64,000 nt of DNA from the NCBI GenBank assembly GCA_043784265.1, contig JAYVYN010000024.1:2621-66620 (forward strand), given 5' to 3'. Positions 1-35,150 of this stretch are shown here, in pieces. Source of the DNA: Gammaproteobacteria bacterium (GTDB lineage: Bacteria; Pseudomonadota; Gammaproteobacteria; Steroidobacterales; Steroidobacteraceae). The notes beneath the pieces were generated by a model. It was not told where the DNA came from. It made no database searches and saw nothing but the letters and a program-made list of their open reading frames with translations. How positions within the stretch are numbered: position 1 is the stretch's first letter; every line of letters begins with the position of its first letter. The translations under genes were made by a program, and so were the position numbers.

Positions 1-495
1 CCGGAAGGTAAGACCATGTGCGGGCTATGTTCGCGTCTCAGGCGTGGCGCCTTGTACCGATTTGCTTCCGAGAATGGCATCACTAAGATTGCTCTGGGTC
101 ATCATCGGGATGACATGATTGAAACACTATTTTTGAACATGTTTTTTGGCGGAAAGCTCAAGGCCATGCCGCCGAAACTTCTCAGCGAAGATCGGCGTCA
201 CATTGTGATTCGCCCGCTTGCCTATGTTCCTGAAAGTTTGATTTCTCGTTATGCAATGGCGCGCGCCTTTCCGATTATTCCTTGCACCTTGTGCGGTTCC
301 CAAGACAATATGCAGCGCGTTGCAGTGAAGAATATGTTGCGGGAATGGGAGCTTAAATTTCCGGGCCGCATGGAGTCTATATTTTCGAGTATTTGTAACG
401 TGGCTGGATCGCAGCTAGCCGATGCCAGTCTGTTTGATTTTGCGGGCCTTGATGCCATGCAGGTGGTGCCTCAGCCGTTGGAGACTTGCACCTGA
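1..495 (+). CDS. ttcA: tRNA 2-thiocytidine synthetase TtcA, C-terminal part (5' end lies outside the window)
   Basis: Frame is open from nt 1. [27 protein letters not shown] and PCTLCGSQ match the E. coli TtcA core and Cys cluster. Confidence 0.85.
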
Positions 496-2003
496 AGGAC
501 GGTGATTTTTTGCTCCCGCCATTGGCTAATAGCTTTTGGATAGAACCGGGGCGATTGCTGGCAGGTGAATACCCGGGAGCCGCAACCTCAGCGGCAACTC
601 TTGCGCCAACCTCGGCGGCGACGCAAGTGCGTCTCGCGCAATTGATCAACGCGGGTATTAGTTATTTTATTGATTTAACTCAAGCGGGTGAGCTTGCGCC
701 TTACGATCACCTACTTCCCGAAGTTCACGAAGATGGGCGTTATCTTATTTACGTGCGTAAAACTATACGTGATCACGGCATACCGTCGCCTAACGAGATG
801 GTGGAAATACTTGACTATATTGCGCGAGCGCTGGAAGTAGGCCATCAGGTATATGTTCACTGTCGCGCTGGCATCGGTCGTACCAATACGGTAACGGGTT
901 GCTGGTTACGACGTAGAGGGTTTGCAGGACCTGAGGCGATCGAGCACTTAAACACATTGTGGAAGGCGAATGCCCGTGCAACAACTTGGCCCCATGTCCC
1001 GGAAACCCATCAGCAAGAAGAATATGTACTCGATTGGAAAGAGCCGGGCGAAGATCTGCCGCTGACCGATCTAGGAGGTGAATTGAAAGTGGTGGCTGAC
1101 TTGCGTGAGCGCTATCGTGGGGCTTTGTTGGGCTTGGCAGTCGGTGACGCGATGGGCGCGATCACGCAATATGGTCTGCCGGGACAATTTACAGCGGTCG
1201 CTGATATGCAGAGCGGCGGCCATTGGCAGTTAGCACGTGGGGCTTGGACCGACGATACCGCCATAACTTTGTGTGTAGCGGAGAGCCTATTAACGCTGGA
1301 TCGCTGTGATATCGGTGATCAGCTGGAGCGCTATCGTCGCTGGCAAACAGGGGGGTATTTATCGAGCGACGGACAGTGTGTCGGCATTACCGCGGCTGTG
1401 ACTGAGGCGCTGCACGCGCAAGATTTTGCCGAACACAATAGCAAGTCCGCGCGGCCCACCGCTCAAGGTTTGGTCCGTGTCGGTGCGGTTGTTTTATATA
1501 GCGCAATATTGCCGGAACAAGTGCTGCTGTGGGTGGAGCAGGTTGTACGCGTGACCCACCAGGCACCTGATGTGCTCGCGGCGGCACAGTACTATGCTTG
1601 TCTGTTGCTGGCTGCGGTGCAAGGATCATCGCGCACCACGCTACTGGCCGACGCGAATGCGCTGTTGCCCAAAGTAGCCAATGAACCTTGGGCGTCTCTA
1701 AAAACCTATCCGCATCGGACTCCTACCTTAAAGGGTGCCGTGGTTGACGAGCTGTTGTTAGTGTTAGCCGTTCTTGGGAGCACACTGAGCTACCGTGAAG
1801 GCCTGCTTAAATTGACCAACATGGGTGGAGATTCAGACATCAGGGGGGCCTTATATGGTCAATTAGCGGGAGCGCTATATGGAATTCACAATATCCCTAG
1901 GGGCTGGAGCCGCGCGTTGTTGCGGCGCGAATTTCTTGAGAATATGGCGGATCGATTATTGGTCGCCGCGCTCGTCCCCAATTGCGGCGCTCCTATATTA
2001 TAA
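486..2003 (+). CDS. Fusion protein: CX5R Cys-phosphatase (PTP/DSP-like) domain plus ADP-ribosylglycohydrolase (ARH/DraG-like) domain
   Basis: N-terminal part has [15 protein letters not shown] and the P-loop HCRAGIGRT (nt 858-884). C-terminal ~300 aa has [15 protein letters not shown] and [23 protein letters not shown] start overlaps the ttcA stop. Confidence 0.75.
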
Positions 2004-9120: not shown

Positions 9121-9837
9121 TCACCAAGCGGTGGGCACAAACAAATACCCCTGGCCCCAAATGGTCTTAATACGGTGCGGTCTACTCGCGTCATCCCCTA
9201 ATTTTCGGCGCAAATGCGATATGCGCACATCGAGAAGCCGATCAGTACCCTCATAGTCACGTCCGCAAAGGCTGGAAAATAGAATCTCGCGTGATTGGGT
9301 TACTCCGGCATGTGCAGCTAGATGCAGGAGCAAATCAAATTCATGGCTAGAGAGTTCAACCGCTTGATCGCCCAAAGTTACCGAGCGTGCCGGCAGGTCA
9401 ATATGTAAGTGCCCGAAATGAAGCACCTGGGGCTCATGGGCGCGGGTCGGGCGGCGTCGAAGCAGTGCGTTGATTCTGACCAGCAGCACTCTGGGTTCAA
9501 TTGGTTTAATGACGTAATCATCGGCCCCGAGTTCGAATCCCATTATTTGATCGCTATCGTTGTCGCGTGCGGTCAATATCAGAATGGGATTGGCGTATGT
9601 CGGCCGTAATTGCTGGCATATCGAGAAACCGTCCCGGCCAGGTAGACCAAGATCAAGGACGATAAGGTCTGGCGGGTCGGTCTGGACCTGCTCCAGAACT
9701 TTATCACCGTGATTGACGACGGAGACGCGAAACCCGTGCGAGCTTAAGTATTGCCGTACTAACTCTGAGAGTCGAAGGTCATCTTCAATTAAGAGAACTT
9801 TCGGCTCTAAGGAAAGTTGAGGGCTAGTTAAAGACAT
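9121..9837 (-). CDS. OmpR/PhoB-family response regulator
   Basis: VLLIEDD...DLIVLDLGLPGRDG...ILILTARD receiver domain and a winged-helix C-terminus (IKTIWGQGYLF). Start trimmed to MSLTSPQ. Confidence 0.9.
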   Translation of the reverse strand: MSLTSPQLSLEPKVLLIEDDLRLSELVRQYLSSHGFRVSVVNHGDKVLEQVQTDPPDLIVLDLGLPGRDGFSICQQLRPTYANPILILTARDNDSDQIMGFELGADDYVIKPIEPRVLLVRINALLRRRPTRAHEPQVLHFGHLHIDLPARSVTLGDQAVELSSHEFDLLLHLAAHAGVTQSREILFSSLCGRDYEGTDRLLDVRISHLRRKLGDDASRPHRIKTIWGQGYLFVPTAW

Positions 9838-10237
9838 TCCAAGGATCTCGGCGTCGATGGCGCAAGCGCACGGCCTCTTTAATGACCCGAACAGCTGCAG
9901 TCGCCAGCACATGCTCTAGAGGTAGGTCGCGGAGTTGAAAAATTTGGTCTTCATCAAAAACCAGGTCAATGCTGTAAGTGCCTTCCGCATAATTCTCCCA
10001 GCAGTGTTTTATCTCTGGACGACCTACAATGATCAGACATAGTGATTCGGGAGTGGGTGAACGCCATTGTGCATGCACGGATGTCGAACATTGTTTGTCG
10101 CCGCTCGCCAAAGTGCACAGCCTAGGGCTAAGGGAGAGAGCAATGCCGACTGCGTCGCTAGCGGCATAAGAATAATGCGCTCCGAGGCTGCTCAGCAAGC
10201 TTAAAAGTCCAATGAATATTGAGTGGCGTCTATTCAT
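9824..10237 (-). CDS. Secreted four-Cys protein, DUF3019-like
   Basis: Signal peptide and four spaced Cys. Its position between mipA and the response regulator/kinase pair matches the arrangement I recall for DUF3019. Confidence 0.5.
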   Translation of the reverse strand: MNRRHSIFIGLLSLLSSLGAHYSYAASDAVGIALSLSPRLCTLASGDKQCSTSVHAQWRSPTPESLCLIIVGRPEIKHCWENYAEGTYSIDLVFDEDQIFQLRDLPLEHVLATAAVRVIKEAVRLRHRRRDPWNVFN

Positions 10238-19425: not shown

Positions 19426-19600
19426 TTTGGGCCTCCTTTGGCCTGATTTTGCAAAGTTCGTGACGAAATTCCGTTCAAAGACGATCCAATCGAGAATTTG
19501 CTCACAGCCGAGCGAAGGCTTAAGTCTCTAGGATACCTGCCTGTTGTTATCGATTCCCCTAGCGGGCTTTATCCCCCTTCATTGAAGTCCGCACCTCTAA

Positions 19601-19629
19601 GCCCCGAGCACAACTCGGGGCTTTTTTTT
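19601..19629 (+). terminator. Rho-independent terminator with no upstream plus-strand CDS
   Basis: Perfect 8-bp GC-rich stem GCCCCGAG/CTCGGGGC with a 5-nt loop, followed by T8. On the minus strand the hairpin is not followed by a T tract. Confidence 0.6.
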
Positions 19630-19685: not shown

Positions 19686-20339
19686 ATGAATAAATTAGGT
19701 TTGGGCTTAATACTAGCCGCTGCAGTACTTCTTTCCGGTTGCGGCTACAATGCCCTCCAAGTCCAGGACGAGCAGGTAAAATCCGCCTGGTCCGAAGTCA
19801 TTAATCAATATCAACGCCGTTCCGATTTGATCCCTAACCTCGTCAATACGGTTAAAGGATACGCGACTCAAGAACAACAAGTGTTGCTCGGTGTCACCCA
19901 GGCCCGCGCTAAAGTGGGTTCTATCCAGGCGACTCCCGAATTGGTTAACAATCCGGAGGCGTTTGCCAAATTCCAGGCGGCTCAAGGCGAGCTGTCCAGT
20001 GCACTGTCCCGCCTCTTGGTGGTGACCGAGAACTACCCACAATTAAAATCGGACCAAAATTTCCGTGATCTGCAGGCGCAATTAGAGGGTACTGAAAATC
20101 GTATCACCGTGGCGCGTAATCGATATATTCAGGCCGTTCAGGGTTACAACGTGACGGTACGGGAATTCCCGGGCAACCTGACGGCTATGATATTTGGTTA
20201 TAAAATCAAGCCCAATTTTACGGTCGAGAATGAGGCGACCATTGCTAAGCCGCCCACTGTGGATTTCGGTGCAGCCACCGCACCGCCGGCCGCCACGCCA
20301 CCCGCGGCTACGACCTCGCCCACGGCTCCGGCTCGTTAA
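19686..20339 (+). CDS. lemA: LemA family protein
   Basis: N-terminal lipobox/transmembrane segment and the LemA signature (YNALQ...WSEVINQYQRRSDLIPNLV). Confidence 0.9.
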   Translation: MNKLGLGLILAAAVLLSGCGYNALQVQDEQVKSAWSEVINQYQRRSDLIPNLVNTVKGYATQEQQVLLGVTQARAKVGSIQATPELVNNPEAFAKFQAAQGELSSALSRLLVVTENYPQLKSDQNFRDLQAQLEGTENRITVARNRYIQAVQGYNVTVREFPGNLTAMIFGYKIKPNFTVENEATIAKPPTVDFGAATAPPAATPPAATTSPTAPAR

Positions 20340-20354
20340 AGTCGCGTCGCAGTC

Positions 20355-21236
20355 TTGCTCAAAATTTCCCGCGCCGTTAATTGTGTAGGGTTTGCCCTGC
20401 TGGCGGCGCTGTGGATGCGCGGGGCGCAGGCCGAGGTCGCGGTTCCGCCCCTTACCGCTCGGATCATGGATATGACGGGCACGTTATCTGGGGAGGCGGT
20501 CGCCCGTATCGAAAGCCAACTAACTCAGTTCGAGACCACCAAGGGCAGCCAGATTGCAGTGCTCGTGGTGTCGACTACTCAGCCCGAAGAGATTGAGCAG
20601 TTTAGTATTCGGGTCGCCGATACGTGGAAAGTCGGACGCAAGAAGATCGACGATGGGGCGATATTGGTTATTGCCAAGGATGATCGACGGGTGCGAATTG
20701 AAGTGGGCCGCGGCTTAGAAGGCGCGCTGCCCGATGCGATTGCGAATCGCATCATTCAAGAAAACATCACTCCACATTTTAAGCTCGGTGACTACGATGG
20801 GGGCGTGAGCGAAGGCGTTACTAAAATTCTTTCGGTGGTCAACGGCGAACCGTTGCCCGAGCCTGACCATAAATGGGAGCGTCGCGGTAGTGGACTTGGC
20901 AATATGTTGCCGCTACTGCTGGTGGTCGTGTTTGTGGCGAGCGGCGTGCTGCGAGCTCTTTTCGGTCATTTGTTCGGATCGGTAGCAACGGGCGGCATCA
21001 CCGGTGTAATCGCGTTTTTTCTGAGCCATTTCTTGCCTATAGGATTGGGCGCCGGGTTATTGGCATTTGTGTTTGCGCTGTTGATGGGATCGACACGCGG
21101 TTGGTCGAGTAGTGGGGGTGGGTTCGGTGGCTGGGGCGGAATCGGCGGCGGCGGTGGAGGCGGTGGCTTCGGCGGCGGTGGCTTTGGCGGTGGCGGTGGT
21201 GGCTTCGGCGGCGGCGGCGCCTCTGGCGGTTGGTAA
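20355..21236 (+). CDS. TPM-domain (YgcG-like) membrane protein with a poly-Gly C-terminal tail
   Basis: TPM phosphatase-like domain (QIAVLVV...RIEVGRGLEG), transmembrane segments, and a GGFGG repeat tail. Confidence 0.8.
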   Translation: MLKISRAVNCVGFALLAALWMRGAQAEVAVPPLTARIMDMTGTLSGEAVARIESQLTQFETTKGSQIAVLVVSTTQPEEIEQFSIRVADTWKVGRKKIDDGAILVIAKDDRRVRIEVGRGLEGALPDAIANRIIQENITPHFKLGDYDGGVSEGVTKILSVVNGEPLPEPDHKWERRGSGLGNMLPLLLVVVFVASGVLRALFGHLFGSVATGGITGVIAFFLSHFLPIGLGAGLLAFVFALLMGSTRGWSSSGGGFGGWGGIGGGGGGGGFGGGGFGGGGGGFGGGGASGGW

Positions 21237-21742
21237 TGGCTATTGGGCGCTTACTACGGCATGCATCATCCGCTCATTGGCGAACGCGCATGCTATTTCC
21301 GAGCGCAACGCTCGACGTAATCGAGACGGCCGTGACGGCAGCTGAACGTACGCATTCGGGCGAGATTCGTTTCGCGGTGGAGACTGCATTGACTCCTTGG
21401 CATGTGTTGCACGGGATGATGCCGCGTACTCGCGCTCTGGAGGTGTTCTCATATCTCAGAGTGTGGGACACCGAACTAAATAACGGTGTGCTGATTTATG
21501 TACAGTTAGCAGATCGGCATGTAGAAATAGTGGCCGATCGCGGCTTCCAGGGTCGAGTGCCCGCGGCAGAGTGGCAAGCCGTGTGCCGGGTTATGGAGGA
21601 GCATTTCCGTGCGGGTCGATATCAGAATGGCTCAGTGGCCGGAGTTGAGGCGGTGGGTAGGATTTTGGCGCATCAATTTCCGCTACAACCGGGTAGCTTG
21701 CGGCAGCACAATCAATTGCCTGACCGTCCCACTCTGCTGTAG
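21236..21742 (+). CDS. TPM-domain protein
   Basis: ATG overlaps the upstream TAA (TAATG). GEIRFAVE...VLIYVQLADRHVEIVADRG is typical of the third gene in lemA-TPM-TPM operons. Confidence 0.75.
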   Translation: MAIGRLLRHASSAHWRTRMLFPSATLDVIETAVTAAERTHSGEIRFAVETALTPWHVLHGMMPRTRALEVFSYLRVWDTELNNGVLIYVQLADRHVEIVADRGFQGRVPAAEWQAVCRVMEEHFRAGRYQNGSVAGVEAVGRILAHQFPLQPGSLRQHNQLPDRPTLL

Positions 21743-21751
21743 GGGTTACGA

Positions 21752-22975
21752 ATGACGGTTAATTTCCTTAGGTACACGCGTACATCCTTGTTTGTGAGTG
21801 CGGGGATTTTCGCTGTAAGCCTGGGTACAGTTTTAAGTGGATGTTCGTTATTTAAGCCAGCGATCGTGAAGCCAGCGCTGGTCGTCGTGGCACCCCCCCC
21901 TGCACCGGAATTGCCGACCCCGGCGGCGACGCATCATTTTGTGATCGAGCCTGCAAATAGCGAAGTGGTGGGTTACGTGCAGCGGACGCGAGTGGGCAAG
22001 GAAGATACCTTGCCGGATATTGCTCGGCGTTTTGATGTGGGCTACGAAGAATTGTTGCTGGCGAATCCTGGTGTCGATCCGTGGTTGCCGGGCGTAGGCC
22101 GCGAAGTCGTCGTGCCGACGCAATTTGTGTTGCCTTCCGCACCGCATGAGGGAGTGGTAGTGAACGTTGCGGCGATGCGCATTTTTTATTATCCGCCGCA
22201 TAAAAAATCCGAGCCGCAAACGGTATTTACGCATCCTATTGGCATCGGTAAAGTGGGTTGGAAGACGCCCGAGGGCACCACCAAAATTGTCAGTCGACAA
22301 AAAGATCCCGTGTGGGTGGTGCCCAAATCCGTGCGTGATGAACACGCCGAGAACGGCGATGTGTTGCCCGCCAAGGTGCCGGCGGGGCCGGATAATCCAC
22401 TGGGGCAGTATATGTTTAGACTAGGTTGGCCCAGTTATTTGATTCATGGCACGAATAAGCCCTATGGTGTCGGTATGCGCTCAAGTCACGGCTGCATGCG
22501 CTTATACCCGGAAGACATCGCGGTATTTTTTGATTTGATTCCCGTAGGCACCCCGGTGACGGTAGTTAATCAGCCGTACCTGTTTGGGTGGAGTGGCGGT
22601 ACGCTGTATTTACAGGCCTATGGCGTGCTTGAAGATGATTCGCGCGACTGGAGTCGTAATCGCAAACGGCTGCTCGCGCAAATGTTGAATCCCAAACTAG
22701 GCAAGAAAATTGCCGTGCATGAAAAGGAAATCGATTGGCAGCGGGTGGGCGAAATGGCGCGTGCGCCGCGGGCGATTCCGGTGGCCATCACCGGACACGG
22801 GGACGCTATTGAAAAAGTGGTGGCCTCCGCTCGTTTGGTTACCAATGCGCTACCGACCGGGTCTAATTGGGATGGTAAGACAGGATTATTGGTGGACGAG
22901 AAAACTTTTAAGGACTTGCTCGGTGGGCGCACGCAAGCGTCGCAGCCGGAGTCTTCTCTTAAGCCTTCACCCTAA
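21752..22975 (+). CDS. L,D-transpeptidase (YkuD domain) with LysM domain, lipoprotein-type signal
   Basis: Lipobox LSGC, LysM (VGKEDTLPDIARRFDVGYEELLLANP) and catalytic HGTN...SHGCMRL. Confidence 0.85.
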   Translation: MTVNFLRYTRTSLFVSAGIFAVSLGTVLSGCSLFKPAIVKPALVVVAPPPAPELPTPAATHHFVIEPANSEVVGYVQRTRVGKEDTLPDIARRFDVGYEELLLANPGVDPWLPGVGREVVVPTQFVLPSAPHEGVVVNVAAMRIFYYPPHKKSEPQTVFTHPIGIGKVGWKTPEGTTKIVSRQKDPVWVVPKSVRDEHAENGDVLPAKVPAGPDNPLGQYMFRLGWPSYLIHGTNKPYGVGMRSSHGCMRLYPEDIAVFFDLIPVGTPVTVVNQPYLFGWSGGTLYLQAYGVLEDDSRDWSRNRKRLLAQMLNPKLGKKIAVHEKEIDWQRVGEMARAPRAIPVAITGHGDAIEKVVASARLVTNALPTGSNWDGKTGLLVDEKTFKDLLGGRTQASQPESSLKPSP

Positions 22976-22990
22976 ATTTTGCATTGCATA

Positions 22991-24889
22991 ATGCGAGCGG
23001 TTTTTAGGGCCTTAATCTTCATAGGTGCGGCAGCCCACGCGGATGCGCCCATCGAGGGCCATGATTATCATTCTTTTGCCAACGTGGATCAGTTTCGGGT
23101 AGTGCACTTGGATCTTGCGTTGGACGTAGATTTTAAAGAGCATGTGTTACGCGGTAGCGTCACTCTTGAAATTAAGCGACTTGATCCGCACGCCACTCAG
23201 CTCGTCTTGGATACTCGCGAGTTGCACATCAGTAGCGTCACTCAACAGAGCACTGACGTCACTGGGGCAACCAGCGCCACTAGCGCAATGGAACCGATCT
23301 GGGTGAGTCGGCCGTTTCAGAGCGGTCGAACCGATCCCATTTTGGGGAGTCCGCTGATCATTGAACTGCCACGCTCCGCGCGCGCGATGGAGTTCATTAA
23401 AATCGAGTACGAAACCTCGCCGGCTGCAACGGCATTGCAATGGTTGTCACCACCGCAAACCGCTGGCAAGCACCAGCCCTTCTTGTACACTCAGTTTGAG
23501 CCGACGGGTACGCGTAGCTGGATCCCGTTACAAGATACTCCCCAGGTGCGGGTGACCTACCGCGCGGTTATTCAAACGCCCGATGAGTTATTGGCAGTCA
23601 TGAGTGCTCAAAACGACCCTAAAGCTAAGCACACCGGCGAATTTGAATTTGCCATGTCTAAGCCGGTGGCTTCGTACTTGATTGCGCTAGCCGTGGGTGA
23701 TTTGAAATTCAAAGCGACCGGGGCGCGGACCGGTGTGTATGCGGAGGGCGGGCAGGTGAAAGCGGCGGCGCTAGCATTTGCAGATACCGAAGCCATGCTG
23801 CAAGTCTCGACCAAACTATTGGGTCCTTATCGCTGGGAGCGGTATGACATTGTAGTGCTTCCTCCTGGTTATCCTGGAAGTGGCATGCAATATCCGCGCT
23901 TGTCGTTCATGCCAGCGACCCTGTCACGCCCTGAAGAGGCACAGGTGTTGGCATACCCAATGGCGCATTCTTGGTCGGGTAATCTTGTGACCAACGCTAC
24001 CTGGGGCGATGTGTGGCTCAACGAAGGCGTTAGTAGTTATCTTGAGAGTCGCATCGTTGAGGCGGTTGAAGGTCAGCAGCGTGCGTCTATGGAGGCGGTA
24101 TTGGGTTTAGCGTCGTTGCGTGAGGAACTAGTGACCCTAAAAGAGGTCGTTAACGCTAACGACAGTTTATTGGCGGTTGATATGCGCGCGCGTGATCCCC
24201 GGGCGGCGTATACCCCGGTAGCGTCCGAAAAAGGTCGACTATTCTTAAAATACCTGGAAATTAGAGTGGGCCGCGTTGGTTTTGATGAATTCTTACGCGC
24301 TTATTTCGATAAGTTTCAGTTTCAGAGTCTTACAACAGAACAATTTTTAGCTTATTTGCAGGAAAATTTACTCAGTCAGTTCCCCGCCGCGGTAAATCAT
24401 AGTCAGTTAATGGCGTGGTTCACGGAACCCGGCATACCCGCAGATGCCGTTATACCCGCAGGCGATGTATTCATCAGCGTTGATACGATTCGAGTAGCGT
24501 GGCTTGCAAATACAACACTCCTTCCATTGGACCTCGCTCACTGGGTAACGCCCGAGTGGTTGCATTTCTTCAAGTTGCTACCCGTACATTTGAGCGCGCT
24601 GCAAATGACGCAACTGGAGCGGGCTTTAGTCGCAAGTCGAAATCGTAGCCCAGAGGTTGAACAAGCGTGGCTGATGTTAGTGATCCGCAATGACTACGCG
24701 CCAGGGTTTGCGCGCTTGCATGCCTACCTTAAAAGCATTTGCCGTATCAAGTGGGTTCAACCCCTGTACGTCGCGCTGCTGCAAACTCCCGCGCATAAAG
24801 AATTTGCGAAACGCGTGTATTCAGAGGCGCGTCCCGGCTATCATTCGGATACGGTGACGGCTATAGATGCGATAACCAATGACAAGTGA
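22991..24889 (+). CDS. Secreted M1-family (leukotriene-A4-hydrolase/aminopeptidase-like) protein with degenerate active site, a probable pseudoenzyme
   Basis: Full-length collinearity with LTA4H. However GGMEN is SGMQY (23879-23893), HExxH is YPMAH (23954-23968) and PYEKG is ASEKG. WLNEG is retained. Confidence 0.8.
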   Translation: MRAVFRALIFIGAAAHADAPIEGHDYHSFANVDQFRVVHLDLALDVDFKEHVLRGSVTLEIKRLDPHATQLVLDTRELHISSVTQQSTDVTGATSATSAMEPIWVSRPFQSGRTDPILGSPLIIELPRSARAMEFIKIEYETSPAATALQWLSPPQTAGKHQPFLYTQFEPTGTRSWIPLQDTPQVRVTYRAVIQTPDELLAVMSAQNDPKAKHTGEFEFAMSKPVASYLIALAVGDLKFKATGARTGVYAEGGQVKAAALAFADTEAMLQVSTKLLGPYRWERYDIVVLPPGYPGSGMQYPRLSFMPATLSRPEEAQVLAYPMAHSWSGNLVTNATWGDVWLNEGVSSYLESRIVEAVEGQQRASMEAVLGLASLREELVTLKEVVNANDSLLAVDMRARDPRAAYTPVASEKGRLFLKYLEIRVGRVGFDEFLRAYFDKFQFQSLTTEQFLAYLQENLLSQFPAAVNHSQLMAWFTEPGIPADAVIPAGDVFISVDTIRVAWLANTTLLPLDLAHWVTPEWLHFFKLLPVHLSALQMTQLERALVASRNRSPEVEQAWLMLVIRNDYAPGFARLHAYLKSICRIKWVQPLYVALLQTPAHKEFAKRVYSEARPGYHSDTVTAIDAITNDK

Positions 24890-24996
24890 ATGGATGAAGG
24901 TGATGCTCGAGGAGATTTCGCGCAAGGAAACAGAAAGTAACCAGGCGCAAATCGAAGAGCGGCTGCGCGCCGCGGATGCGGAGGTACCCTCGAGTG

Positions 24997-26556
24997 ATGT
25001 TGAGTAGCCTAGGTATCCAGGTCGAGGAGGGACTTGGCCCCGATCAAGTGATTACGCCCATGCGCACGGCGCTGACCGCATTCGTGGGGCGTACCTTGCG
25101 CGGTCCGGTCAATAGGCCTGTTACGGTTACTAGTTTCTCTCAGTTCCAACAAGTTTTCGGCGGCTTGTGGCAGCCCGGCTTATTATCGTACGCGGTTGAG
25201 CAATATTTCGACAATGGTGGTCGTGAAGCCATTGTTGTGCGTGTGGTCAATGGTGCAACCGCGGCGACGATGAGCTTGGCTGCGGGTACTGAAAAGCTCA
25301 CGCTGCGGGCGGTGCGTCCGGGTACGCGTGAGTTTTTAAGGGCTAGTGTGGACTACGACAATATCCTGCTCGACAATGTTTTTGAGTTTAATCTCTTAGT
25401 GCAGCGCGTACGTCTGCAAGGCACCGAGCAAGTTGAGGACCAGGAGAGCTTTCAACAAGTATCGTTATTGCCGACGTCGGAGCGTTACTTGCTCAGAGTT
25501 TTGACTGAGTCGGAGTTAGTGCGTGTGCAAGGCATTTTGCCAGCTTTGCGACCCGATCGAACTTTAGACCCGAATAGTGGACTCGCGACGCGTTATGCTT
25601 TTTCTAACTCGGATGGCGACGATGGAGCGCCGCTGACGGACTACGATCTGATCGGTTCGGCACTCGATAAGACGGGATTGTTTGCGTTGACACAGGTCGA
25701 GCAATTCAATTTATTATGTATACCACCGCCGACGCGCGAAACCGATGTGGGACCTAGCGCATTGTTAGTGGCTGCGCGTTTTTGCCGCGAGCGCCGAGCG
25801 ATGTTGATAGTCGATCCGCCCTGTGCTTGGGCAACTGCCGACGATGCGCTGCGTGGCATGCGCCGATGGGATTTTTACGACGAAAACACGCTGATGCATT
25901 TTCCGCGTATTTTGGCCTACGATAAGCTGCGCGCACGCTTTGAGGCATTTGCCTCTTGTGGTGCGGTGGCGGGAATGTTGGCGCGTGCCGATGCCAGCGA
26001 GTCAGGGTGGTCGCCGGCTAGAATAGAAGAGGTCGCGCTACGTCCTGGCTTCCGCTTAAGTTGTTTGGTGACTGAAGAGGCCCGGGCTAAATTGGCGGCG
26101 CGTGGCGTCAATACTCTGCAAGTGGTACGTGCGGGGGTAAAAAATGGCGTGCCGCTCCGTACCTTGACGCCGAGCACTGGCTATTCCTCGGAATGGAAAT
26201 CACTGGCGGCACGGCGTCTGGCGCTGTACATCGTCAATAGTCTAGAACATGGCACTCGTTGGGTAGTATTAGCCCCGCAACCTGCCAAAGTCGCCGCGGC
26301 GGTTGAGCTCCAAGTGCGCGCGTTTTTTGTGGATCTGTACGCGGCGGGCGCATTTGGTGACCGCCATCTTGAGGACGCTTATTTTGTCAATTGTGACCAA
26401 GACAATCATCGTCTGCTTGCCGATCCGCATGAGTTTCAATTGCTAATCGGTTTTACGGCTGAACGCGCGTCCGATGAATTTCATGGTTTTCGTATTGCCC
26501 ATTCCCCGACGGGCAGCAAGGTGTCGGCGGTGAATGCCAGTCTGTACCGATCATGA
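24997..26556 (+). CDS. Phage/contractile-injection-system tail sheath family protein (orphan)
   Basis: N-terminus GIQVEE..TALTAFVGRT..PVTVTSFSQFQQVFGG..YAVEQYFDNGGREAIVVRV and C-terminus GVNTLQ...RRLALYIVNSLEHGTRWVVL..EDAYFVNCD match conserved sheath blocks. Start could instead be 24976. Confidence 0.8.
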   Translation: MLSSLGIQVEEGLGPDQVITPMRTALTAFVGRTLRGPVNRPVTVTSFSQFQQVFGGLWQPGLLSYAVEQYFDNGGREAIVVRVVNGATAATMSLAAGTEKLTLRAVRPGTREFLRASVDYDNILLDNVFEFNLLVQRVRLQGTEQVEDQESFQQVSLLPTSERYLLRVLTESELVRVQGILPALRPDRTLDPNSGLATRYAFSNSDGDDGAPLTDYDLIGSALDKTGLFALTQVEQFNLLCIPPPTRETDVGPSALLVAARFCRERRAMLIVDPPCAWATADDALRGMRRWDFYDENTLMHFPRILAYDKLRARFEAFASCGAVAGMLARADASESGWSPARIEEVALRPGFRLSCLVTEEARAKLAARGVNTLQVVRAGVKNGVPLRTLTPSTGYSSEWKSLAARRLALYIVNSLEHGTRWVVLAPQPAKVAAAVELQVRAFFVDLYAAGAFGDRHLEDAYFVNCDQDNHRLLADPHEFQLLIGFTAERASDEFHGFRIAHSPTGSKVSAVNASLYRS

Positions 26557-27062
26557 GCAATCTCCATATTGTGTTTTCGCACGGTAAGGAAACTGGTCCT
26601 TGGGGTTCGAAAATTACCAGCATGGCGAAAGTAGCCCGCGCGCTAGGGCTAGGCGTTGATTCGGTGGATTACCACGGTATTGAGAACCCGTTAGAGCGGG
26701 TTGACAAGCTGCTGGAATTCGGCGCGCGCAGCACGGCTCCGTTGTTACTCGTGGGATCGAGTATGGGTGGGTATGTGTCGGCAGCGGCGGCGGCACGCTT
26801 AAATGCGCGCGCACTATTTTTGCTAGCGCCCGCCTTTTATATGCCGGATTTTGAGTCGTTCACCCCTCAGGACGTTACCTGCCCGACGGCAATTGTGCAT
26901 GGGTGGGGTGATGAGGTGGTACCGGTGCAGAATAGCATTCGCTGGGCCCGCGAACACTTAGCCACTCTCTACGTGTTGGACTCGGACCATCGATTGCAAG
27001 ATAAGATCGAGCCCATTTGTGAACTATTTAAGGCTTTTTTACAAGTTCACTCGGCAGCATAG
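26553..27062 (+). CDS. Small alpha/beta-fold serine hydrolase (YqiA-like esterase)
   Basis: GSSMGG nucleophile elbow, HGWGDEVVP (Asp) and DSDHRL (His). ATGA overlap with the sheath gene stop. Confidence 0.7.
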   Translation: MSNLHIVFSHGKETGPWGSKITSMAKVARALGLGVDSVDYHGIENPLERVDKLLEFGARSTAPLLLVGSSMGGYVSAAAAARLNARALFLLAPAFYMPDFESFTPQDVTCPTAIVHGWGDEVVPVQNSIRWAREHLATLYVLDSDHRLQDKIEPICELFKAFLQVHSAA

Positions 27063-27918
27063 CCGCCTGATGTGCGGCGAGTGCAAGTTCGCGCAAACTT
27101 TCGCCCAATTGTTCGCCGCAGCGTTTGCCCATGGCTTCAAACCCCGCCCCCATGGCTTCGATATTTGCATTGACATAACTTTTGCCGGCCACCGATTCTA
27201 AGAAAGAGAGTAGTTTCTTAAGCTCCGCATCGCTCAAATCTCGATAGCCGTAGGCCATATAACTACGCAAGGGATCGTTCATGTTCTGTTCCATATCCTG
27301 GCGCGTGGCTTCGCTTGATTTGCGCGCTCGGTCGTCGGCCGCAATGGGGTCACGTCCTGAGCCTATGGCGGTCCCGACCGCCACCGCTCGTCCCATTCTT
27401 AAGAATATGTTAACCGTCGATTCGGTGGAACGCGTGGCCTTCGCCAATTTAACCATGAGGGCATCCCGTGATGGAGTTGACGGCGCGGCCAGTTGTCCAT
27501 TCATCGCTTTGTCGATGCTGGCTTCGGGTAGTTTAGAGAGTGCAAGATCAGCTACCACCATGTGCTGGCCTGCCTCGCTGTTGAGAAACGCCAGAGTTTT
27601 CTTGACGCTATTGGCATCCATATTTGCGGCTAAGGCTACGAGTGCCGGCGGTTCAAAATTGTAAATACGAAAGCCGTGTTCGGCCGCCGTGGAGATGGCG
27701 CCGAGCTGCGAGTCGGTGAGTGCAGTCGCGGAATCAGCGGAAAACATCTGGCGAATGCGTTCGGGCATTGATCCTAAAGTGGCACGGACTTGTTCGCGTA
27801 TTTCAGCCGCCTGGTAGACCTGAGCCGCCGTATCGATGTCGATACCACCGCCGCCAACACCAACACCATAGGCTGAAGTGGCCAACATCATGAGTAACAT
27901 AAAACGCTGCATGAACAA
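27028..27918 (-). CDS. Secreted hypothetical protein, possibly a tandem DUF2059-like protein
   Basis: Signal peptide and two FL(N/E)SxAGxxxV motifs reminiscent of DUF2059. Confidence 0.4.
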   Translation of the reverse strand: MFMQRFMLLMMLATSAYGVGVGGGGIDIDTAAQVYQAAEIREQVRATLGSMPERIRQMFSADSATALTDSQLGAISTAAEHGFRIYNFEPPALVALAANMDANSVKKTLAFLNSEAGQHMVVADLALSKLPEASIDKAMNGQLAAPSTPSRDALMVKLAKATRSTESTVNIFLRMGRAVAVGTAIGSGRDPIAADDRARKSSEATRQDMEQNMNDPLRSYMAYGYRDLSDAELKKLLSFLESVAGKSYVNANIEAMGAGFEAMGKRCGEQLGESLRELALAAHQAAMLPSELVKKP

Positions 27919-33314: not shown

Positions 33315-34623
33315 CTAGGGAAGCGCCGGCCCCATTCGTGGAAAACTTACCTTTACCTTAGCGCCTCCCTCAATGCCCGATTCAAGGTTCACGGTGCCTG
33401 AATGCAGCTGGGTGATTCTAAGCATTAGTGCAAGCCCCAGGCCGGCACCTTCAAAATATTTGTCTTCCTCTGGCCCCCGAAAGAATCGATGAAAGGCGCG
33501 GGCTGCGGTTTCCGTGGTGAACCCAGGGCCATCGTCCAGCACTGCAAGGGTTATGGACTGATCGGTGTGCCCAATCTCTACGCAAATCCGCGCGCGCGTG
33601 TCGTATGGCGTTGCTCAATAAATGGCGCAGCAGAATTGCCAGCGCTTCTTGGTCACCGGGCACAGTTTCTTGGTCACCCGTGCACAGTTTCTTGGTCACC
33701 CGTGCAGCGAACGTCAATATTGCGTTCACGCGTCGAAGTGACGAACTCCCCTATCACTAATTCCGCCAGATGCTTGAGTTGCACGCGACCGTGACTTATC
33801 TGCACGCTGGTGTTGGCGTCAAAGCGTGCCAAGGTTAGGACCGAATCCACCATTTGAGCAGCATCGCACTTAAGGGATTGCGCAGTTCATGGGCGGCATC
33901 AGCCGTGAGGGCGCGCTCACGAATTAATGAGTCATGCACTCGGTGAGTTAGGCGATTCACTGCTTCGGATATCGACAGTAGTTCGGGTGGTAATCCCGAT
34001 CCATCGACCGGTTTCTCCGCCTCAGGTGTGAGTGAGTCGAGGGCCTTCGCGTAGCCAAAAATAGGCGCGGTAGTCTTACGCGCGATCCACGCGATCGCCG
34101 CGAATAACGCTACCATCATGGCGGCACCCGGTGCCATCAGTCGCAAGGCGCTCGAATTTGCGAGCGCCGCTCGACGGGACATTGGCTGTGCAACATGTAT
34201 GGTGGCGGCATCGAGTTGCAAGGCTAGTGTGTATACGCGGTATTGTTTGCCGCCGATGGTTGCATAGCCAAAGCCCCGATCATGTGCGCCCGCTAGTGGC
34301 GCCACCGGGGCGCCATGAGAACGAAAAACCAAAATGCCATTCGGCCCTCGTACCTGATAAACGATATCGCTTTGGCAGTTTTGATCAATCACGGCTAGTT
34401 CTAAACCAATGCCATTTTTGGTTTCGTTGAGTTCTGATATTTCGTTACGCACCACCGCAAGTACAGCGTTCGCGGTATTATCGAGAGCATCATCAAAGAG
34501 CCGGTCTGAGGTTAAAACTGCGGCGCTATACAGCCAAAAACTACTGGCACACCATGCGAGGAGAGTAGCGGTTCCAATTACCAGCGTGAGTCGATTCAAT
34601 AAGGACCAACGGGGAGCGTTCAC
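33315..34623 (-). pseudogene. Sensor histidine kinase pseudogene (QseC/PmrB-like architecture), with at least three lesions
   Basis: The sensor/transmembrane part and H-box AHELRNPLSA are in one frame. The DHp helix 2 (MVDSVLTLARFD) is in a second frame after an internal deletion. The N-box LLRHLLSNAIRHA is in another frame, behind a 22-bp tandem triplication. DDGPGF...GAGLGLAL is again shifted. Confidence 0.85.
33646..33710. repeat. About 22-bp direct tandem repeat, three copies (TTCTTGGTCACCCGTGCACAGT)
   Basis: Copies at 33646-33666 (21 nt, one mismatch), 33667-33688 and 33689-~33709. The unit is not a multiple of 3 and it introduces a TGA in the kinase frame. Confidence 0.9.
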
Positions 34624-34632
34624 CGACTAGGC

Positions 34633-35150
34633 TCAACTAGCCCAGTGATACAGCGCCTCTTCAATGCGCGCGCGTGAGACCATATCTCCTGCCCGGCGCG
34701 AGGACACCGAGAACTGCAAATTCCTGGGCGGTTAGGCTAATCGGTTGGCCGCGCAGCATGACTGAAGCGCCCAGGGAGTCAATGGTTAAAATGCCCAGGA
34801 CATGTAAACCATTGGTGCGCACTCCTTGGCGCCGGTCAATGGCTCTAAGACGAGCCGCAAGTTCTTCTAGGTCTGTCGGCTTGACCCTGTAGTCGCCTGC
34901 CCCGGCGTCCAATCCTGCGATTCGATCATCAATCCGACCACGCGCAGTTACGATGAGGATTGCTGCCGTCCGGCAGCCCTAAGTCAACTATCACCGCGTC
35001 ATAGGGGGTCATTTCGGCGCTTGGACTCAGCCACGCCGCGTGAGCGGCAGATGCTGTTTGTACCCAATCGGTGGCGTGCTGATCTTGGGCTAATCCGGCT
35101 TTCAAGGCGCGACCCACCATGGCGTCATCTTCGATGAGGAGTAGCCGCAT
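34633..35150 (-). pseudogene. OmpR-family response regulator pseudogene
   Basis: MRLLLIEDD...VIVDLGLPDGS jumps out of frame to ILIVTARG..GLDAGAGDY, which is an internal deletion. A further frameshift follows in the winged helix (EFAVL.. / RAGDMVSRARIEEALY). The last ~35 codons are missing. Confidence 0.85.

Follow-up and report, generated by a model that had tools for sequence, protein, structure and literature searches.

A stand-alone homologue of contractile-tail sheaths encoded among envelope genes of Steroidobacteraceae and related Gammaproteobacteria, a candidate for exaptation

The DNA analysed here is a stretch of 64,000 nucleotides from a Gammaproteobacteria bacterium of the Steroidobacteraceae (contig JAYVYN010000024.1, positions 2,621 to 66,620), and this whole stretch is referred to as the window. 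The open reading frame (ORF) at positions 24997 to 26556 of its + strand encodes a 519-residue homologue of the sheath of contractile phage tails and injection systems. This sheath gene is an orphan in the window and in every related locus examined, when 64 kb is inspected in the window and up to 10 kb on each side of the gene in each related locus. It is shown, or strongly inferred from the sequence comparisons, to be inherited vertically as a single chromosomal gene, and it sits in an envelope-maintenance neighbourhood, typically just 3' of the gene for the L,D-transpeptidase YkuD and often with a rhomboid protease gene. To our knowledge, sheath proteins are known only within complete contractile machines, which are phage tails, tailocins, extracellular contractile injection systems (eCIS) and type VI secretion systems (T6SS). 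The reading favoured here, with a probability of roughly 0.55, is that the protein is an exapted ('domesticated') sheath of the lineage of eCIS, of the antifeeding prophage (AFP) and the Photorhabdus virulence cassette (PVC), and of the contractile injection systems (CIS) of Streptomyces, and that it oligomerises, has no tube and is linked to the envelope. A sheath that is kept alone over a long evolution would illustrate clearly how a single structural protein of viral origin can take on a new role in the cell. Such recruitment is supported by purifying selection on the gene, its housekeeping setting and a shift of constraint off the C-terminal half of the protein.

The ATG at position 24997 is likely to be the start codon of the sheath gene, because a Shine-Dalgarno-like motif, GGAGG, is read at positions 24980 to 24984 (+ strand), 12 nt 5' of this ATG, and because the orthologues in the databases are 519 residues long. 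An alternative first ATG at position 24976 would give a protein of 526 residues. An earlier reading of the same DNA, made from its letters alone (the sequence-only reading), placed a sheath-type ORF at 24997, which is borne out, and gave it 520 residues, which is one residue too many. The encoded protein matches the PHROG_23 'tail sheath' profile over residues 9-474 (E = 3e-26). A phmmer search of the PDB finds the CIS sheath of Streptomyces coelicolor (8bky, 4e-25; 8bl4, 1e-23) and the sheath of Halogeometricum borinquense (9ezm, 7e-21), and these matches cover the N-terminal and C-terminal blocks alike. The Pfam sheath models PF04984 and PF17482 match the ORF below threshold (E = 0.034 and 0.067), and NCBIfam and Rfam give no match for it. 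Because the Pfam models miss the orphan sheaths, many database members of the family, which number in the thousands, are annotated as 'hypothetical'; this is the label that most of them carry, and the finding fills this annotation gap.

An earlier AlphaFold model of the protein, built from a shallow alignment limited to sequences with 60% identity or more to the query, has a predicted local distance difference test score (pLDDT) of 57 and matches sheaths in Foldseek with low template modelling (TM) scores. The AlphaFold2 model built from a diverse alignment of 150 sequences has a pLDDT of 92.7 and a predicted TM score (pTM) of 0.93. When this confident model is compared with the PDB by Foldseek, the top 50 matches are all sheath proteins (50/50). 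The best of them is 9ezm (E = 1.4e-26, TM 0.67/0.71), and the TM score to the S. coelicolor CIS sheath, normalised to the target, is 0.80. The predicted fold is the three-domain fold of the eCIS type, in which an outer domain is inserted at about residues 81-200. The profile and structure searches place the predicted product of positions 24997-26556 among the sheath-fold proteins far above chance, as the sequence-only reading had proposed.

The orphan sheath resembles the eCIS/CIS sheaths (Afp2-4, Pvc2-4, S. coelicolor CIS 8bky/8bl4/9gtp and H. borinquense 9ezm) in sequence (E = 4e-25 to 7e-21), in the multi-domain fold (TM 0.67-0.80) and in the blocks TAFVG..RGP, FGG, NGG and DG.DG..DY.G...TG and the C-terminal strand EF..F.I. 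It differs from them in its surroundings, because eCIS sheath genes adjoin tube, baseplate, Pvc16 and ATPase genes, whereas the orphan sheath gene never does so in the loci examined. Similarity to phage sheaths is weak and partial, with 28-30% identity over at most 43% of the query. T6SS sheath families are absent from the Pfam scan of the ORF up to E = 10, and no T6SS chain is present among its PDB sequence matches.

The absence of other contractile-system genes is first seen in the window itself. Most of the window ORFs of at least 90 residues are compared with Pfam, and those that are Pfam-negative or not Pfam-scanned are compared with PHROGs; the ORFs at 16-495 and 9121-9912 are assessed by reading their translations only. 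These scans detect no tube, baseplate, spike, tape-measure, AAA+ ATPase or integrase gene in the 64 kb, and no T6SS gene, in agreement with the sequence-only reading, which had reported no contractile-system or phage-like gene there. Relatives of the sheath are numerous. A single-sequence search gives 4,063 proteins at E ≤ 1e-3 among the candidates scored, and the protein at rank 120 is 61% identical to the query. When one genome per species is scanned, 43 loci that carry the sheath gene are obtained (L001 to L043), all of them in metagenome-assembled genomes (MAGs). They are labelled Steroidobacteraceae or unclassified (Gamma)proteobacteria, except for one that is labelled 'beta proteobacterium' (L040), and the closest to the window by sheath identity are L001 (98%) and L002 (93%).

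In all 43 loci the sheath gene lies at one common chromosomal block. The 5' part of this block consists of genes for a glutathione S-transferase (GST), saccharopine dehydrogenase, GreA, LemA, TPM, TPM and YkuD, followed by one variable gene and the sheath gene. The variable gene encodes an M1 peptidase, a Rieske oxygenase or a rhomboid protease. In the 3' part, the sheath gene is followed by 0-5 kb of inserted genes and then by genes for a small esterase, DUF2059, PlsB, ArfB and MscS. The inserted genes are opposite-strand genes for a patatin/cNMP phospholipase, an oxoprolinase and DUF4442, none of which is related to a contractile system. When neighbours are counted in the 39 loci that have at least 7 kb of downstream sequence, YkuD is encoded upstream of the sheath gene, on the same strand and within 4 kb, in 36, among them the distant loci L045, L046 and L048 described below. 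No baseplate, spike, tape-measure, Pvc16-type cap or AAA+ ATPase gene is detected in the 43 loci and the six flanks of the deeper clades described below. The proteins of L050, a locus with a complete neighbourhood of eCIS genes, give the same result when they are used as queries. The L050 sheath matches the window and all of the 53 loci compared with it (937 kb together), whereas the L050 tube, baseplate, Pvc16 and eCIS-core proteins match only L050 itself in this set.

The orphan arrangement extends to more distant sheaths. When 1.84 billion cluster representatives are searched with a profile, 11,467 clusters of the sheath superfamily are detected at E ≤ 1e-3. In a neighbour-joining tree of the best 150 of these 11,467, the canonical eCIS sheaths, which begin with YPGVYIEE and end with GFAPLKPAEFVVIKIQQ, are set against a large and diverse group that has non-canonical termini. 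Genomic context is available for six further clades of the non-canonical type, whose sheaths are 34-43% identical to the window sheath, and the sheath is an orphan in each of them, with no contractile-system gene in the contexts of L045, L046, L048, L052, L053 and L055. The gene order is S49, M48, YkuD, rhomboid, sheath in L045 (3.59 Mb contig) and L046 (624 kb contig), and S49, M23, YkuD, rhomboid, sheath, oxoprolinase (-) in L048 (17 kb contig). In these three loci YkuD, rhomboid and sheath are consecutive, with gaps of 63-73 bp 5' of the sheath gene. In L055 (5.85 Mb contig), some members of whose clade are labelled Woeseiaceae, the order is LipA, S49, M48, methyltransferase, YkuD, PALP-domain gene (-), sheath and, further on, oxoprolinase (-). 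In L052 (30 kb contig) the sheath gene is followed by DUF4442 (-) and oxoprolinase (-) genes, then at some distance by a small hydrolase gene, and then by PlsB; in L053 (13 kb contig) YkuD is not upstream, and an oxoprolinase gene is nearby. In the distant clades LipA, S49 peptidase and M48 or M23 peptidase genes precede YkuD, and YkuD alone, with or without rhomboid, stays beside the sheath gene. A hydantoinase/oxoprolinase fusion of the HyuA-HyuB type (~1,200 residues) is encoded a few kb from the sheath gene in L017-L031, L048, L052, L053 and L055, mostly downstream and on the opposite strand. The window lineage lacks this fusion gene, and its presence elsewhere may be plain synteny.

The canonical relatives are arranged differently. 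The nearest of them are about 33-36% identical to the window sheath over 86-93% of its length. The sheath gene of L050 (36% identity) is followed by a gp19-type tube gene and by T4_baseplate, Pvc16_N and eCIS_core genes, and the best plasmid match, from Streptomyces europaeiscabiei, is followed by genes for a tail (tube) protein, DUF4255 and an ATPase. Both canonical controls examined (L050 and L054) are complete eCIS loci in which the tube gene lies directly after the sheath gene. The orphan sheaths are rated as a distinct and abundant subfamily of the CIS sheaths.

The sheath gene is under strong purifying selection, as judged from its substitutions. The ratio of nonsynonymous to synonymous substitution rates (dN/dS) is 0.07 against L001 and 0.06 against L002, which is as low as that of the housekeeping neighbours. 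The ORF is intact in 39 of the 43 loci. The four interrupted ORFs are all found in MAGs with contig names beginning with contig_ or tig, which suggests that these are long-read assemblies, where frameshift errors are common. The GC content of the sheath gene is 0.551, compared with 0.534 ± 0.028 for the window genes, and its GC content at third codon positions (GC3) is 0.558, compared with 0.555 ± 0.035. The identity of the sheath to that of the window co-varies across loci with the identities of the flanking genes (rho 0.44-0.89).

The termini of the protein are altered relative to those of the canonical sheaths. In known sheath structures (pyocin, PVC, AFP and T6SS), the N-terminal and C-terminal parts form the inner layer, which contacts the tube and carries the 'handshake' between subunits, and the inserted domains decorate the outside. 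The N-terminal strand is kept in the orphan family as GIxVxE where the canonical sequence is PGVYIEE, and the last canonical strand is kept as EFxxFRIxH where the canonical sequence is AEFVVIKIQQ. Both 'handshake' linker strands align with the canonical ones in sequence, but have diverged from them, and an additional C-terminal strand follows them. Whereas the canonical sheaths end 4-6 residues past the last strand, the AlphaFold2 model of the orphan sheath has the last canonical strand at residues 496-503, a turn of two residues and then a family-specific strand at residues 506-513. Many orphan lineages have a further C-terminal tail of about 20-85 residues. The tail is shortest in the window lineage, which has lost almost all of it. 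These tails vary by clade in the alignment of L003-L043. The tail reads ...NRLNxxQYSPAELEWVDxLAxQL in one clade and EIETxILR in another, and a third clade has a Pro/Arg-rich tail of 85 residues that ends with ...LDLNLIARLYGEPERRGDRF. By their sequences, the clade-specific tails resemble short linear motifs that would bind partners particular to each lineage.

The distribution of conservation along the protein is altered as well. Conservation is expressed as the information content of alignment columns, in window numbering, for 31 canonical eCIS sheaths and 66 representatives of the orphan family. Residues 300-500, in the C-terminal half, are the best conserved part of the canonical sheaths (2.4-3.5 bits) and the least conserved part of the orphan sheaths (1.4-2.1 bits). 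In contrast, residues 81-160, in the inserted outer domain, are poorly conserved in the canonical sheaths (1.6-2.4 bits) and are the best conserved part of the orphan sheaths (2.2-2.9 bits). The N-terminal strand GIxVxE shows about average conservation across the orphan family. Judged from the aligned sequences, the orphan profile is inverted relative to that of the canonical eCIS sheaths. In a sheath, the inner domains, which are turned towards the tube and bring about contraction, lie in the C-terminal half. The inverted profile therefore fits a protein that has lost the tube as a partner and whose outer domain has acquired a conserved one.

According to the proposed explanation, the sheath was very probably acquired by an ancestor of a large gammaproteobacterial group that includes the Steroidobacteraceae and the clade with Woeseiaceae-labelled members, and was then passed on vertically as a single chromosomal gene without adjacent tube, baseplate, spike or ATPase genes. 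The protein would still oligomerise or polymerise, because both terminal 'handshake' strands are retained. It would no longer work around a tube, since the C-terminal half is relaxed, the outer domain is more constrained and a C-terminal strand or tail is added; the added tail would sit on the would-be luminal side. A role as a cytoplasmic polymer or scaffold, which the sequence-only reading had suggested, is plausible. The most likely role would be that of a tube-less cytoplasmic assembly or scaffold, the outer domain of which binds a conserved partner and which has some link to envelope homeostasis. The partners of the outer domain and of the C-terminal tail may be connected with the neighbouring L,D-transpeptidase, rhomboid and protease genes. 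The sheath gene is probably co-transcribed with its YkuD and rhomboid neighbours. The proposal in its full form, in which a phage-tail sheath has become a stand-alone cellular protein, a vertically inherited and tube-less polymer or scaffold that is wired to envelope genes and binds partners through its outer domain and tail, is offered tentatively and with less than even confidence.

Precedents exist for parts of this proposal. T4 gp18 is an example of a sheath protein that forms polysheaths alone. The myovirus sheath FV3 gp053 is reported to self-assemble into a polysheath without other phage proteins (PMC6357053). Myovirus polysheaths thus provide a precedent for stable tubes made of sheath protein alone and for assembly without a tube protein. 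However, myovirus sheaths are parts of the virion, their genes belong to full tail modules and their polysheaths are by-products of assembly, whereas the orphan sheath is encoded by a chromosomal gene. TssB/TssC (VipA/VipB) of the T6SS are likewise a cytoplasmic, chromosomally encoded descendant of phage sheaths that is used by the cell. The T6SS sheath is a two-protein unit within a 13-gene system that includes Hcp, VgrG, baseplate and ClpV, whereas the orphan sheath has no such neighbours. If the proposal is correct, a contractile injection system has given rise to a new polymer or scaffold in Gammaproteobacteria of soil, freshwater and sediment; Steroidobacteraceae are common in soils. The family would also serve as a natural experiment for the CIS field, which may reveal what a sheath does without a tube and which of its parts become dispensable without one.

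Several points weigh against the proposal of a domesticated sheath. The additional C-terminal strand, as predicted, might cap the handshake site, in such a way that the protein is monomeric or hexameric. The link with YkuD could be residual synteny rather than function, YkuD is missing at L052 and L053, and an opposite-strand gene lies between YkuD and the sheath gene in L055. The conservation profiles compare two groups of differing diversity within a single MAFFT alignment. It is possible that a tube/baseplate locus is located elsewhere in the genome, beyond the flanks of at most 10 kb. Lastly, the literature searches yield no account of sheath genes that stand alone or have been domesticated, nor of the orphan sheath family, which cuts both ways. 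Only two of the alternative explanations, that of a contractile system split between loci and that of a dedicated sheath-esterase unit, would alter the headline reading.

The first of these two is that the sheath is a working one, which polymerises on a tube and contracts, and that the genes for its tube, baseplate, spike and ATPase are at another place in the chromosome. The retention of the handshake strands, the complete fold and the strong purifying selection are all compatible with such a split system, and the view of the genomes is limited to at most 10 kb on each side per related locus and to 64 kb in the window. Nevertheless, this explanation is considered unlikely, because the tube gene lies directly after the sheath gene in both canonical relatives examined, because the orphan gene keeps one housekeeping position with no CIS gene nearby across clades 34-43% identical, and because the C-terminal half, which faces the tube and drives contraction in the structures described above, is relaxed compared with the canonical sheaths. 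In addition, we know of no description of a CIS locus that lacks a sheath, which also counts against a split system.

Another explanation, which leaves the headline reading unaltered, is that the protein does not polymerise. The additional C-terminal strand would then fill the site that normally receives the strand of a neighbouring subunit, and the protein would stay monomeric or form small oligomers, its outer domain making it an adaptor or a binding protein. The position of the predicted strand directly after the last canonical one, separated by the two-residue turn, is consistent with this explanation, as are the earlier end of the canonical sheaths and the rank of the outer domain as the most conserved part of the orphan family. 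On the other hand, the N-terminal linker strand GIxVxE is kept family-wide at about average conservation, and the only role of this strand that we know of in canonical sheaths is in contacts between subunits. This explanation, which depends on a putative strand pairing in the model, is likewise judged improbable.

The second explanation that would alter the headline reading concerns the gene downstream of the sheath gene. The ORF at positions 26553 to 27062 (+ strand) encodes a 169-residue alpha/beta hydrolase of the UPF0227/YqiA-like type. It matches Pfam UPF0227 (PF05728) with 30.8 bits against a cut-off of 21, and also Hydrolase_4. The UPF0227 match spans profile positions 2-92 of 187, and is thus confined to the N-terminal half of the profile. 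The catalytic triad consists of S70 (in GSSMGG), D120 and H146, each of which is at least 95% conserved across 38 orthologues, so that the intact Ser/Asp/His triad recognised by the sequence-only reading is confirmed. The protein is therefore like the YqiA-type/UPF0227 esterases in its Pfam match, nucleophile elbow and triad, but matches only half of the profile. The stop codon of the sheath gene overlaps the start codon of the hydrolase gene in the ATGA at positions 26553 to 26556 (+ strand), where the sequence-only reading had located it. This overlap implies translational coupling, but in the window lineage only, because the overlapping arrangement is found only in the window and in its two closest relatives, L001 and L002. 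The coupling thus appears from the sequences to be specific to the window's own lineage.

The sequence-only reading had gone further and proposed, as one of two possibilities, that the sheath and the esterase form a two-gene module. The overlap in the window, L001 and L002 speaks for such a unit, as does the recurrence of close adjacency on separate branches (L013, L016 and L037-L039). The esterase gene is downstream of the sheath gene, on the same strand and within 7 kb, in 33 of the 39 loci, and the identity of the esterase varies in step with that of the sheath (rho 0.76). However, the two genes are within 400 bp of each other in only 7 of the 39 loci, and opposite-strand patatin, oxoprolinase or DUF4442 genes lie between them in most lineages. 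The esterase gene is not found in the available sequence around L014 and L035, nor is it detected in the flanks of the deeper-clade loci L045, L046, L048 and L053. A small hydrolase gene lies 6.2 kb from the sheath gene in L052, and none is listed among the called genes of L055. Furthermore, all other genes of the block show similar long-range synteny and co-variation. The pairing therefore recurs as an overlap in the two closest relatives, but as adjacency it is not conserved elsewhere, and the proposal of a module is not upheld; that the two proteins act as a dedicated unit is quite unlikely. The esterase is a long-standing syntenic neighbour in the Steroidobacteraceae-like part of the family, and not an obligatory or conserved operon partner of the sheath.

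The last explanation is that the gene is what is left of a decaying prophage or eCIS, or else an anti-phage decoy by which the tail assembly of myoviruses is poisoned. The gene does descend from mobile contractile systems, and phage sheaths match it weakly. Both forms of the explanation are nevertheless rejected as very improbable, and the remnant form, which the sequence-only reading had also discounted, is largely ruled out. The gene is under strong purifying selection (dN/dS about 0.06) with the ORF mostly intact, host-like GC and GC3, a fixed position without phage genes nearby, synteny kept across deeply diverged clades and co-divergence with its neighbours, in contrast to a truly decayed two-component system in the window that is full of frameshifts. 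PADLOC models match none of the sheath, esterase, YkuD, M1 peptidase and DUF2059, and the gene lies outside any variable island.

The genes around the domesticated-sheath candidate in the window are housekeeping and envelope genes, which include those for UvrD, arginine decarboxylase, GreA, Rho, thioredoxin, MscS, ArfB, glycosyltransferases and TonB receptors. Seven co-directional and tightly spaced genes form a string at positions 19686 to 27062, in which the sheath gene comes sixth. The string begins with the LemA, TPM and TPM genes (19686 to 21742, + strand), which are followed by the gene for a LysM-YkuD L,D-transpeptidase (21752 to 22975, + strand), which of all genes on the same strand is the one most widely kept upstream of the orphan sheath gene. 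A gene for an aminopeptidase of the M1/leukotriene-A4-hydrolase type, assigned by Pfam, NCBIfam and synteny, lies between the YkuD and sheath genes (22979 to 24889, + strand), and the esterase gene is the last of the string. The LemA-TPM-TPM-YkuD segment (19686-22975) is a tight co-directional string in most of the Steroidobacteraceae-like loci L001-L043 as well.

A strong terminator-like hairpin with a 10-bp stem and a T-run is detected by a consensus scan at positions 19599 to 19623 (+ strand), just 5' of the string, and is possibly the upstream boundary of a transcription unit. The same scan gives no terminator-like site of comparable strength within positions 19686-27062. A scan for sigma-70 promoters gives 3 sites, compared with a mean of 6.4 in shuffled sequence, and no promoter is claimed. 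The downstream end of the + strand string is marked by the convergent DUF2059 gene (27028 to 27918, - strand). When called from its first start codon, the DUF2059 ORF shares 35 nt (27028-27062) with the 3' end of the esterase gene.

Two other regions of the window contain minor features. The region at positions 33315 to 35150 (- strand) encodes an OmpR-type response regulator and a QseC-like sensor kinase that are split over different frames into five or more ORF fragments, and this two-component operon is apparently pseudogenised. The fragments begin just past position ~33287, where the similarity to the 98%-identical L001 stops, and therefore lie at the edge of a strain-variable segment. The ORF at positions 486 to 2003 (+ strand) encodes an unusual fusion of a dual-specificity (PTP-like) phosphatase to an ADP-ribosylglycohydrolase (Pfam Tc-R-P / PTP-SAK and ADP_ribosyl_GH), and is followed downstream by genes for a putative zinc metallopeptidase and an ATP-grasp ligase.

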